Positions 12,618 through 15,032 of a DNA stretch of 64,000 nucleotides are shown piece by piece. Under the pieces are notes generated by a model. The model did no database searches and was not told the DNA's origin. It saw only the letters and a program-made list of their open reading frames with translations. How positions within the stretch are numbered: the stretch's first letter is position 1; each line of letters begins with the position of its first letter. The DNA is from Patescibacteria group bacterium (lineage in GTDB: Bacteria > Patescibacteriota > Patescibacteriia > JACRDY01). The translations under genes and the position numbers were made by a program. The stretch spans positions 23,748 through 87,747 of the forward strand of contig JBAZLA010000004.1 in the NCBI GenBank assembly GCA_041650515.1. Reading direction: 5' to 3'.

Positions 12618-12780
12618 CTGGCGGGGGTTTAGGGGCGTTTGCGGCGCGTAAGCGCACCCTCGACTCCTAAGACGATGTTGAGGGAGTGCGCTGGTTAAAA
12701 CAAACTAAAGATGAACAAAACTCGCGCCGCAAACGCCCCTAAAACTTTTTTGGTTACTTTTTTAGTTATAAAAAAGTAAC
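12618..12780. repeat. Structured GC-rich intergenic element R1 (copy 1 of 2)
   Basis: Perfect 21-bp outer stem tttaggggcgtttgcggcgcg / cgcgccgcaaacgcccctaaa. Inner hairpin gcgcaccctc..gagggagtgcgc. Conserved single-stranded aaagatgaacaaaac, then an 11-bp AT hairpin gttactttttt-agttat-aaaaaagtaac. Homologous to 14874-15032. Confidence 0.55.
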
Positions 12781-12830
12781 AAACCAACCCAAAATAAAAA
12801 ACAGCCGGCGATGACTGTTTTTTACTCCTA

Positions 12831-13325
12831 TTATTTTTTGATCCCATTCTCTAAATAAAACGCCGTTTTACCCTCAATCGCTTCGAGAGCAGCCGGTATC
12901 CGCAGACTTAATTTTTTACTCAACAGAGGCAATTCTTGCACCAAATCCACAAAACGATATTCGCTCAACTCATCTTTGGCCAACTTGATCTGGCTAATCT
13001 GTTCGGCGGTGAGAACGCCGCCATAAAAAATAAACTGCAGATTTTCGTCCTTCTCATCAGTAGCTGCGTAATAATCAATCAAGACGAAACTGGCGGTCTG
13101 TATTTTTAAGCCCAACTCTTCTCTTACTTCGCGCAGGACCGCAGTTAGCGGCGATTCGTCTTGATCAACGACACCACCGGGAATTGACCAATGATCTTTA
13201 TAGACCGGATTAACAATCAGTAGTTCACCTTGCTCATTAAAAAACAAAACGCCAGCGCCCATGCGTTTGCGAGGTAATGTCGCATAAAATTCTTTTTGGT
13301 CCATACTAAATTTTACCTTTCTCAA
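12831..13325 (-). CDS. NUDIX hydrolase
   Basis: 164 aa. Nudix box [24 protein letters not shown]. Confidence 0.8.
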
Positions 13326-14475
13326 TCCCCTGACGAACTTTTTTCATCAAATCTAAATAAAAAGCTAAATTATGGATCGTGGCGAGCCGCAGACCCAAAA
13401 TTTCATTGGTGTTAAATAGATGCCGCAAATACGCTCGAGTATAATTCTGACAAGTCGGACAGGGGCAATACTTATCTAAGGGCTTAAAATCCGCTTTGTA
13501 CTGCGAATTAGTAATGTTAATATTTTGATAAAACTTACCGCTCAAATCTTTCTTGGTCCAAATATAGAGCCGACCATGGCGCGCCTCGCGAGTTGGGATA
13601 ACACAGTCAAACATATCCATTCCGCCTCTGACTGCCGCTAAAATTTCTTCCGGTTTGCCTAGACCCATTAAATATCGCGGTTTATTTTTGGGTAACTCTG
13701 GCTCCACCCATTTTAAAATATCCTTCATCTTTTCCCGCGGCTCACCCACGGCCACCCCGCCAATAGCATAACCATCAAAATCTAAACCAACCAACTGCCT
13801 AGCGCTTTTGATTCTTAAATCTTTATACACCGACCCCTGCACAATTCCTAATAAACCACTTTTGACTTTTGACTTTTGACTTTTGACTTTAAACTCTTTT
13901 CGGCATCTTTTGGCCCACCGTGTAGTCATCTCTAGCGATTCGGCCGCATACTTCTTGGTGCAAGGATAGGGCGGACACTCATCCAAAACCATAATCAAAT
14001 CGCTACCCAGCGCTAGTTGAATTTCTACGGCTTTCTCCGGTGTGATTAAATGTTTATTTCCGCCATCTTCATCAGTTTGAAACTCCACTCCCCGCTCACT
14101 AATCTTTCTCATTTTAGCTAAAGAAAAAACCTGGTAACCGCCACTATCAGTCAAAATCGGGCCAGCCCATTTCATAAACTGGTGCAACCCACCGGCTTTT
14201 TTAACTAACTCGTGTCCCGGCTGTAAATAAAGATGATAGGTATTAGCTAAAATTATTTCCGCTCCCAAAGATTCAACTTCGTCGGTAGTTAAAGTTTTGA
14301 CTGCGGCCCGCGTGCCAATCGGCATAAAAAACGGCGTTTGGATTTGACCGTGACTAGTTGTTAGAACACCCCGCCGAGCTTTGGACCTCTCGGCGGAGCC
14401 TGCCCTGAGTGAAACCGAAGGGCTCGAGGCCTGCTTTTTACTTTGTTTGAGTAGTTGAAAATGCATAAACTCCAA
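13306..14475 (-). CDS. tgt: Queuine tRNA-ribosyltransferase (tRNA-guanine transglycosylase)
   Basis: 389 aa. [45 protein letters not shown] and the zinc site [17 protein letters not shown]. The true start may be the internal MHFQ; the ORF overlaps the upstream gene by 38 nt. Confidence 0.85.
13857..13890. repeat. Heptanucleotide tandem repeat (gactttt) x ~4.5 inside tgt
   Basis: Plus strand acttttgacttttgacttttgacttttgacttt. It encodes [11 protein letters not shown] in frame. Confidence 0.85.
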
Positions 14476-14821
14476 CTTCTTTAATTTTCTTTATGTTTTT
14501 TACAAATTGCTTCTTAAGATGGGTACAATTTTCAAAACCATCGCACTCCCAACAGCCGATTAAACGTTTGGCCATACAACACTGACGAATCAAACAATTA
14601 GTTTTGCCACCACCATCTTGGCATATTTTGGGGCAACGCAAGCCGATTAGTTTATTGAGCTCTTTGATGAATTGATTAGAAGGATCATTTGTTGATTCAC
14701 AGATATGGCTGCTTTTGATAACAACTTTTAAATTTCTTGCAGCAGCAGAAACGACCATTCTGTAACACCTTGGACAATATAGACCGCAATAAGAAATCAA
14801 TTTTTCTTTTTGCTTATTCAT
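14438..14821 (-). CDS. Cys-rich small protein (DUF3795-like, C-x-x-C rich)
   Basis: Likely start at ATG 14819-14821 ([20 protein letters not shown]...), 127 aa with about 13 Cys. The 206-aa track ORF extends it 5' through the GC-rich repeat R2 and is probably an artefact. Confidence 0.5.
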
Positions 14822-14873
14822 ATATAATTTAAAATACACCAACTTTATCTTAAAAGCAACCAAAATATTAAAC

Positions 14874-15032
14874 CCGGCGGGGGTTTGGGGGTCGTTTGCG
14901 GCGCGGAGCCGCAGTCCCCGTCTGGCCGATACCGTCCAGGGGGCAAGGCGGGTTGATCCACATGAAAGTGAACAACACCCGCGCCTCAAACGCCCCCAAA
15001 GGTTTTTTGTTACTTTTTTGGCTCCAAAAAAG
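14874..15032. repeat. Structured GC-rich intergenic element R2 (copy 2 of 2)
   Basis: Outer stem tttgggggtcgtttgcggcgcgg / ccgcgcctcaaacgcccccaaa with compensatory a-u to g-c change relative to R1. Different inner hairpin. Conserved aaagtgaacaacac. Terminal AT hairpin gttacttttttgg..ccaaaaaagtaa. Confidence 0.55.

Follow-up and report, generated by a model that had tools for sequence, protein, structure and literature searches.

In a 64-kb stretch of Patescibacteria DNA (64,000 nucleotides of contig JBAZLA010000004.1, assembly GCA_041650515.1; hereafter the window), two intergenic segments, R1 (12618-12782) and R2 (14874-15038), were found to belong to an undescribed family of ~165-base intergenic elements in a small Patescibacteria group. 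The initial annotation had described a two-copy element; the family comprises at least seven members, at least six in this genome and one (M1) in a distant relative. In these copies a common fold is retained through compensatory base changes, which suggests that selection keeps the single-strand fold, not the sequence. We tentatively favour the view that the family is an old, clade-restricted mosaic repeat, similar to BIME/REP elements and selected for a single-strand hairpin that would be read by a protein, most likely as RNA. We infer the expression, strand, protein partner and biological role of the family from comparison of the sequences.

R1 and R2 lie where they had been placed and align with each other at 83% identity over ~200 nt; they are the sole copies in the 64-kb window. 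All of their features are given here on the + strand. The outer stem of ~21 bp (P1) was borne out in both. R1 carries it as a perfect inverted repeat of 21 nt (5′ arm 12628-12648, TTTAGGGGCGTTTGCGGCGCG; 3′ arm 12723-12743, CGCGCCGCAAACGCCCCTAAA), and in R2 (5′ arm 14884-14905; 3′ arm 14980-15000) it carries one bulged T (14892) and one C.U mismatch (C14899/U14986). The arms are exactly 74 nt apart in both elements, despite inner sequences that are only ~45% identical. The A-U pair of R1 that had been reported as a compensatory G-C pair in R2 is real and occupies alignment columns 14/125. The inner hairpins (P2) of the two elements also differ in sequence and share the same location, as had been claimed. 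That of R1 (12652-12691) is of type A, common to copies La and Lb described below, and that of R2 (14908-14951) is of type B, with a GCC/GGC base, an internal loop and a GUCCCC/GGGGGC helix. P3 of R1 (12692-12722) is a 4-bp GGUU/AACU helix with an A-rich loop containing AAAGATGAACAAAAC. The supposedly conserved unpaired block AAAG(A)TGAACAA(A)AC is present in R1 and R2, and in the wider family it is conserved only in some copies (R1, R2, La and Lb). P1 is followed by a T-run (12746-12751 in R1; 15003-15008 in R2) and by the terminal A/T hairpin P4 (GTTACTTTTTT..AAAAAAGTAA), which was confirmed in both elements and reads GTTACTTTTTT-AGTTAT-AAAAAAGTAAC in R1 (12753-12780) and GTTACTTTTTT-GGCTCC-AAAAAAGTAA in R2 (15009-15036). 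Upstream of R1 lies an A-rich 5′ flank (12583-12617), semi-conserved in the family. The arm motif occurred four times in the window versus 0.21 expected. Fold z-scores were -8.5 for R1 and -4.6 for R2, with none of 200 shuffled sequences equally stable, and the elements matched the covariance model of the family with 176.7 and 145.2 bits, respectively.

The contig to which the window belongs measures 472.5 kb and comes from a Patescibacteria metagenome-assembled genome (MAG; ENA ERZ27247363, k141_1064255). A metagenome scan with one 20-base motif identified a JGI contig (L123) with three copies, the sequence of which is identical to contig k141_1227450 (200 kb; L151) of the same ENA assembly. 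As judged from protein accessions that are 174 apart (MFA5076425 and MFA5076599), k141_1064255 and k141_1227450 almost certainly belong to one NCBI MAG. When L151 was searched with the covariance model, four copies were found, namely La (1090-1254), Lb (3397-3567), Lc (10678-10843) and the divergent Ld (13740-13904). All six copies of the MAG lie on the same, lagging, C-rich strand. They are also clustered, with four copies within 13 kb and two within 2.3 kb; ~70 kb of other sequence from the genome contained none. On the window's contig, ~20 kb beyond the window held no copy. The tgt loci of eight related lineages, the tgt proteins of which are ~66-71% identical to each other, were then compared. 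One of them, L156, contains M1 (9692-9859, minus strand of the locus), which scored 102.6 bits when it was left out of the model. M1 lies between the ftsL terminator and tgt, which is the position of R2, and like R2 it is antisense. The proteins of its genome share only 44-71% identity with those of the window (tgt, 70%). No copy was found at the ftsL-tgt locus of six other related lineages. Viral contigs searched with two patterns and phage genomes searched by BLAST gave chance matches only, none of which scored with the model. A contig scan with GGCGGGGGTTTRGGGG was discarded, given that the pattern was too short; it returned at least 120 chance matches in GC-rich genomes, and the one Patescibacteria match listed (L056) is intragenic.

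In the family as a whole, the ~165-nt unit consists of a G-run, P1, P2, P3, the T-run and P4, with P2 and P3 set on a three-way junction. P1 is an 18-21-bp GC-rich closing helix interrupted by a conserved C.U mismatch, P2 is a variable hairpin, P3 is a 4-bp helix with an A-rich loop, and P4 is an independent A/T hairpin. Covariation was examined in an alignment of seven sequences from two genomes, six of them being paralogues of one genome. Standard pairs filled 93.7% of the cells, a percentage inflated by the fitting of the alignment to the model, versus 85.1% with shuffled partners and 43-55% with slid partners. Changes on both sides occurred in 20 of 53 pairs, versus 7.0 ± 1.9 with shuffled partners (none of 500 shuffles reached 20, a count that is not to be read as a probability) and 2-3 with slid partners. 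Compensatory pairs were found in P1 (eight pairs; 98% paired), in P2 (seven pairs) and in P4 (five pairs; 100% paired). P1 is identical in five copies of this genome, where it takes the form GGGGG-CGUUUG-C-GGCGCG / CGCGCC-U-CAAACG-CCCCC. It was rewritten in Ld (GGGG-UCGGCA-C-GGGGC / GCCCC-U-UGCCGA-CCCC) and in M1 (GGGGG-UGAAAA-C-GGCGC / GCGCC-U-UUUUCA-CCCCC). The C.U mismatch is retained at the same site in six of the seven copies even though the flanking pairs were rewritten in Ld and M1; in R1, the one exception, the site is C-G. Likewise, the base of P4 is retained (GGUUACUUU / AAAGUAACC), and its centre, rewritten in M1 from UUU-AGUUAU-AAA to CUGG-AA-CCAG, is still self-complementary. The junction nucleotides GGGU(A/U)(A/G)A(A/U)C and a GA in the P2 loop are also conserved, and Lb and Ld carry indels of +6 and +3, respectively. 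The suggestion of the initial annotation that structure rather than sequence is conserved thus holds in the larger alignment; the copies show no neutral decay, nor are they simple terminators of a single strain, as M1 lies in another genome.

The family is also mosaic. In their outer parts, R1, R2, La and Lc share 85-97% identity; the interiors fall into two types, type A (R1, La and Lb) and type B (R2, Lc, Ld and M1), which are only 49-57% identical to each other. Pairwise identity among the copies within the genome is 57-85%, so that they are as deeply diverged from one another as from M1 (57-70%). In Lb, the T-run is replaced by an inserted hairpin, TCCGCC-AAA-GGCGGA, which also occurs alone in the window, in the compared loci and in the ftsL terminator of L156. 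This small GC hairpin (TCCGCC-NNN-GGCGGA) is found three times in the window (4921-4935, 15070-15084 and 39629-39643) versus 0.05 expected, and again at L151 3521-3535 (inside Lb) and 6718-6732 and at L156 9621-9637 and 9975-9990. It forms the stem of the ftsL terminator in L156 and resembles a second, smaller repeated module. A solo P4 is present at L151 18393-18416. In another relative, L148, P4 is found upstream of mraZ as part of an otherwise different GC-rich folded structure, in which Watson-Crick pairs join the T-run to CCAAAGG. This region (L148 4745-4965, minus strand of the locus; fold z -4.3; 17.9 bits with the model) ends in the R-family module ACUUUUGG plus GGTTACTTTT..AAAAGTAAC and may be a distant cousin. 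The conserved unit reaches beyond the inverted arms on both sides, into the A-rich flank and P4. The copies have neither terminal inverted repeats nor target-site duplications, and the possibility raised earlier of a structured miniature inverted-repeat transposable element (MITE) in the usual sense was accordingly not upheld.

With regard to genomic position, the minus strand carries 57 of the 61 long open reading frames (ORFs) of the window, at a GC skew of about -0.17. Read in gene direction, the region runs through mraZ-rsmH-ftsL, a terminator, R2 (antisense), DUF3795, tgt, nudix, a terminator, R1 (antisense), a 122-aa gene and clpB. For context, the terminator of the tgt-nudix operon lies between the nudix stop codon and R1 (12791-12828, minus strand), and that of the mraZ-rsmH-ftsL operon upstream of R2 in gene direction (15104-15123, minus strand). 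Between the ftsL terminator and R2 is one of the small GC hairpins (TCCGCC-TAC-GGCGGA; 15070-15084, + strand). The promoters of the minus-strand genes downstream of R1 and R2 adjoin their start codons. Because the upstream operons have terminators of their own and the downstream genes have promoters of their own, R1 and R2 are neither terminators nor leaders of their neighbours. A role as cis-regulatory 5′ leader of the downstream minus-strand genes was ruled out, as the promoters lie at the start codons and the gene families are unrelated. The earlier proposal of a 3′-untranslated-region element of minus-strand operons also did not survive, given these terminators and the finding that copies occur in every orientation relative to their neighbours, next to terminators and between tandem, convergent and divergent gene pairs. 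Moreover, direct pairs of copies bracket 2.1-2.9-kb blocks with accessory or horizontally acquired genes (nudix, DUF3795, cupin, OPT/VIT1 and superoxide dismutase [SOD]), and the ftsL-tgt and tgt-122aa slots differ among relatives. In one relative the ftsL-tgt slot, which in the window holds R2 and DUF3795, carries genes resembling the bAvd and reverse transcriptase genes of a diversity-generating retroelement (L148 8541-9500; L150 350-1784). The Fe/Mn SOD gene beside Lc (L151 10001-10603) is without a close Patescibacteria relative; its next-best matches are 64-71% identical, several of the named ones being from methanogenic archaea (68-71% identity to methanogen SODs), a pattern that suggests horizontal acquisition.

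We also considered which strand would fold, and whether as RNA or DNA. P1 comprises 116 Watson-Crick, no G.U and two A.C pairs, and P4 comprises 76 Watson-Crick pairs and one G.U pair. Being almost purely Watson-Crick, both helices therefore fold equally well on either strand. Such symmetry agrees with the varied orientations of the copies to their neighbours and would equally result from constraint at the DNA level. G.U wobble pairs in P1 were rejected as a marker of strand, the recurrent odd pair being the C.U mismatch. The + strand of the window is modestly favoured by three observations. Helix H1 (5′ GGCGGGGG paired with CUUUUUUGG, in R1 involving the T-run) and P3 are rich in G.U pairs and possible only on that strand; the sense fold is the more stable in five of seven copies, by 3.6-14 kcal/mol; and the unpaired bases are 40% A and 21% U. 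This evidence is modest because the changes in H1 and P3 are one-sided only. All copies have an A-rich AAA tract and a TAttaA-like box 1-3 nt before CCGG, the final base of the box always being A, not T. No conserved -35 was found upstream of the copies, and a promoter scan upstream of R1 and R2 found nothing. Where promoters of this genome can be recognised, they are of canonical type (TTGAAA-17-TAGAAT and TTGCTT-17-TATAAT).

These elements lack the hallmarks that define known families. With Rfam 15 at gathering thresholds, a check that the initial annotation had proposed, only tRNAs matched in the window, L148, L151 and L156, and no family matched R1 or R2; at E≤10, R1/R2, M1 and Lc gave chance hairpin matches only, such as miRNA precursors, far below the thresholds. 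In kind, the R family is comparable to REP/BIME or to the Correia elements of Neisseria, to which it is unrelated in sequence. It resembles REP, BIME and REPIN elements in being multi-copy, extragenic and placed at operon ends, with genome-specific arms and a patchy distribution among relatives; in its conserved inverted arms, which form a long hairpin (P1, 98% paired) around a less conserved spacer of discrete types; and in its conserved stem imperfection and its mosaic combination with other small modules. Unlike REP, the R-family arm GGGGGCGTTTGCGGCGCG lacks GTAG and is not self-complementary, and unlike REP/BIME the family has a three-way junction, an extra conserved A/T hairpin and a reduced Patescibacteria host. 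Unlike REPIN, it is accompanied by no RAYT in ~105 kb of the MAG or in the relatives' loci, and its copies are deeply diverged (57-85%) with compensatory changes and form no cloud around a master sequence. Hairpins of Correia elements (CREE/NEMIS) are substrates of RNase III and alter the stability of neighbouring mRNA. Like Correia and ERIC repeats, which are ~120-160-nt intergenic repeats with transcripts that fold into long hairpins, the R family has a P1 (18-21 bp) long enough to be an RNase III substrate of this kind; the terminal inverted repeats, TA target duplication and hundreds of near-identical copies of Correia elements were not seen. Unlike a MITE, the R family has neither terminal inverted repeats nor consistent flanking direct repeats. 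Unlike a retron non-coding RNA, none of the seven copies adjoins a reverse transcriptase gene, the only one seen being that of the retroelement in L148, a relative that is itself without a copy.

Under the favoured interpretation of a BIME/REP-like repeat, the folded strand would most likely be RNA from the G-rich (window +) strand, although P1 and P4 would also fold in the opposite transcript or in single-stranded DNA. A putative clade-specific protein would recognise P1 by its sequence together with the mismatch; this dual recognition would account for the identity of P1 in five copies and for its rewriting, with the mismatch kept, in Ld and M1. Situated between transcription units and beside terminators, the copies may act as very stable hairpin punctuation, serving as exonuclease blocks, processing sites or insulators, and new copies would arise by local duplication or mobilisation. 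Several observations weigh against this interpretation. Copy divergence (57-85% identity) is far above that typical of recently amplified repeats, and no copy looks decayed, which is at least equally compatible with a function at each locus or with a gene-like RNA. That R2 and M1 keep the same position in such deeply diverged genomes is a gene-like trait. The neighbouring operons are already terminated, which leaves no obvious need for the elements in termination or stabilisation. No transposase (Y1/RAYT or DDE) or integrase is encoded in the ~105 kb covered of this genome, nor at the loci of the relatives. In addition, the inflated pairing percentage and the limits of the shuffle test noted above bear on the covariation itself.

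The most serious alternative, which we regard as possible yet rather unlikely, is that the copies are autonomous multi-copy small RNA genes, each with its own + strand promoter and a start at about GGCGGGGG, giving a ~140-250-nt rod-like RNA with closed ends. This RNA would act in trans, and its most plausible task would be to bind or sequester a protein, with P1 and the A-rich loop as contact sites, on the model of Y RNA, 6S RNA or CsrB. Y RNA and 6S RNA likewise have 5′ and 3′ ends that pair in a conserved stem with a non-Watson-Crick feature, a variable interior, a U-run on the 3′ side and clustered paralogues; the R family differs in having no Rfam match, no Ro/TROVE gene seen, a higher copy number and no recognisable promoter. 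Such genes would be consistent with the independence of position and orientation from neighbours, with a R2/M1 locus kept across genomes with 44-71% protein identity, and with copies that are all intact and evolving by compensation, their junction nucleotides being conserved. The same can be said of the sense-only features (the G.U pairing of H1 and P3, loops rich in A and, in five of seven copies, a lower free energy of the sense fold), of the TAttaA box, which every copy has at a constant 1-3 nt upstream of CCGG, and of the terminator-like hairpins downstream of P4 in M1 and in R1, that of R1 being the nudix terminator in its + strand reading. However, a conserved -35 is lacking, the -10-like box ends in A, unlike the canonical promoters of the genome, and the upstream promoter scan was negative. 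Moreover, the near-absence of G.U pairs in P1 and P4 would be unusual under constraint on RNA only, the presence of at least six paralogues within ~105 kb and the reuse of P4 and of the small GC hairpin module are more repeat-like, and all copies lie on the lagging, C-rich strand. This last feature, in six of six MAG copies, would suit a single-strand-DNA recombination or transposition site that delimits accessory-gene blocks, similar to attC or to the hairpins of IS200/IS605 and REP/RAYT. The architecture resembles that of integron attC, with structure favoured over sequence, a conserved outer helix with a conserved mismatch, variable terminal structure and uniform chromosomal orientation. 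The helices are Watson-Crick only, direct pairs of copies flank 2.1-2.9-kb accessory or horizontally acquired blocks, and the ftsL-tgt and tgt-122aa slots vary among relatives. We nevertheless consider this improbable. The uniform strand comes from only two clusters and is statistically non-independent; no integrase or Y1 transposase was present in any sequence examined, including IntI in the window and loci; the arms (GTTTGCG / CGCAAAC) do not match the RYYYAAC/GTTRRRY core motifs and contain no R″/R′ cores; there is no promoterless cassette array; and the block between R1 and R2 includes the core, syntenic gene tgt. P4 was also tried as a Xer/dif-like 11-6-11 site and rejected: the spacer differs in R2 (GGCTCC), and in M1 the centre is the palindrome CTGG-AA-CCAG, a rewriting that indicates hairpin behaviour rather than the core of a recombinase with an asymmetric spacer.

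It also seems hardly probable that the elements are only elaborate intrinsic (bidirectional) terminators or insulators. The A-rich tract upstream, the very stable GC hairpin and the T-run downstream are what such terminators would show; a scan flagged terminator-like sub-hairpins on the minus strand (14886-14870, 14993-14981 and 12736-12724), and the elements are always between transcription units. However, the adjacent operons have canonical terminators (in the window, in L156 and at the SOD gene), AAAAC intervenes between P1 and the T-run, the T-run is lost in Lb and degenerate in M1, and P4 has no flanking T-run. A simple intrinsic terminator has a loop of 3-8 nt and an immediate U-run, whereas 74-96 nt separate the arms in the R family, and a 165-nt three-way junction with a conserved mismatch is far beyond what termination needs. 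Least probable of all, in our estimation, is a type I toxin-like mRNA for a small peptide with 5′-3′ fold-back. An ORF running from (A/G)TGAAC to a TAA inside P4 (in R1, MNKTRAANAPKTFLVTFLVIKK; window 12710-12779, + strand) comprises 22-25 codons in R1, Lb and Ld (GTG start) and, after a frameshift, in R2. The indels of Lb (+6) and Ld (+3) preserve its frame, and the closed 5′-3′ build recalls hok-type mRNAs. The start position, however, is ATA in La and Lc, M1 has no equivalent, the peptide tracks the RNA arm (RAANAP becomes LPLADP in Ld) and is not conserved in Ld or M1, the hydrophobic stretch of only ~8 residues is a product of the T-rich P4 codons, and no convincing Shine-Dalgarno sequence was found. 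With start codons missing in La, Lc and M1, this explanation was rejected, and the ORF is most likely incidental.

Several other repeats and structured regions were observed in the same sequences. A 37-nt repeat (window 4913-4949 and 39621-39657; 92% identical) lies 50-90 nt downstream of both tRNAs with long variable arms, tRNA-Tyr (4999-5081) and tRNA-Ser (39711-39797); on the + strand it contains the T-loop-like CCGTTCGAATCCC and could be a tRNA-like remnant or a processing element. The tRNA-Asn gene (32989-33061) lies inside a perfect 20-nt inverted repeat (32978-32997 / 33055-33074) that prolongs its acceptor stem. A 48-nt direct repeat (32749-32796 versus 32959-33006, 210 nt apart and 75% identical overall) copies exactly the end of this gene (CTCCGAGGGTGGGACTC) and possibly arose as a partial duplication of the tRNA or as an att-like scar. 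In L151, a series of short GC hairpins (6690-6815; CCACCCTACGGGTGG, CCCCCGTTAGGGGG, TCCGCCAAAGGCGGA, CCGCCCAAAGGGCGG and GGCCTCTGGCC) lies directly beside a tRNA (6818-6891), within a called 127-aa ORF that has no Pfam match; this may be a structured RNA region, not a gene. Clusters of GTAC-containing short repeats, direct and inverted (AGTACCTAGTACACAGTAC... and ACTGTGGACTGTGGACT), occur at window 45409-45507, 45728-45761 and 60639-60767, and comparable short tandem repeats directly follow ftsL in L148 (7110-7150, GTAGCTT ~5 times) and L160 (1495-1555, TAGTATC/T ~8 times).

Patescibacteria, also known as CPR bacteria, have small, streamlined genomes for which few non-coding elements are on record; our literature search for CPR repeats, small RNAs or comparable Patescibacteria elements found no description of this one. 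Because ~200 bp per copy are kept intact by compensatory evolution, both in several paralogues and in a second genome that is deeply diverged, the R family must matter to the cell or be a very persistent genetic parasite. With the family known from two genomes, its significance is moderate for now. If it is REP-like, as we tentatively favour, interspersed mosaic repeats would be maintained even in reduced genomes. If it is RNA, it would constitute a new orphan motif, unusual in the conserved mismatch of its helix, and would point to an RNA-binding protein yet to be named. A bolder proposal, which we consider unlikely, is that the family is a Patescibacteria-specific class of small RNA or single-strand-DNA site, the P1 mismatch helix being read by a dedicated, co-evolving protein and the copies marking the borders of accessory-gene slots beside core genes such as tgt. 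If this were true, the family would represent a previously unseen RNA-protein system, or hairpin-based recombination of gene blocks, in reduced symbiotic bacteria.

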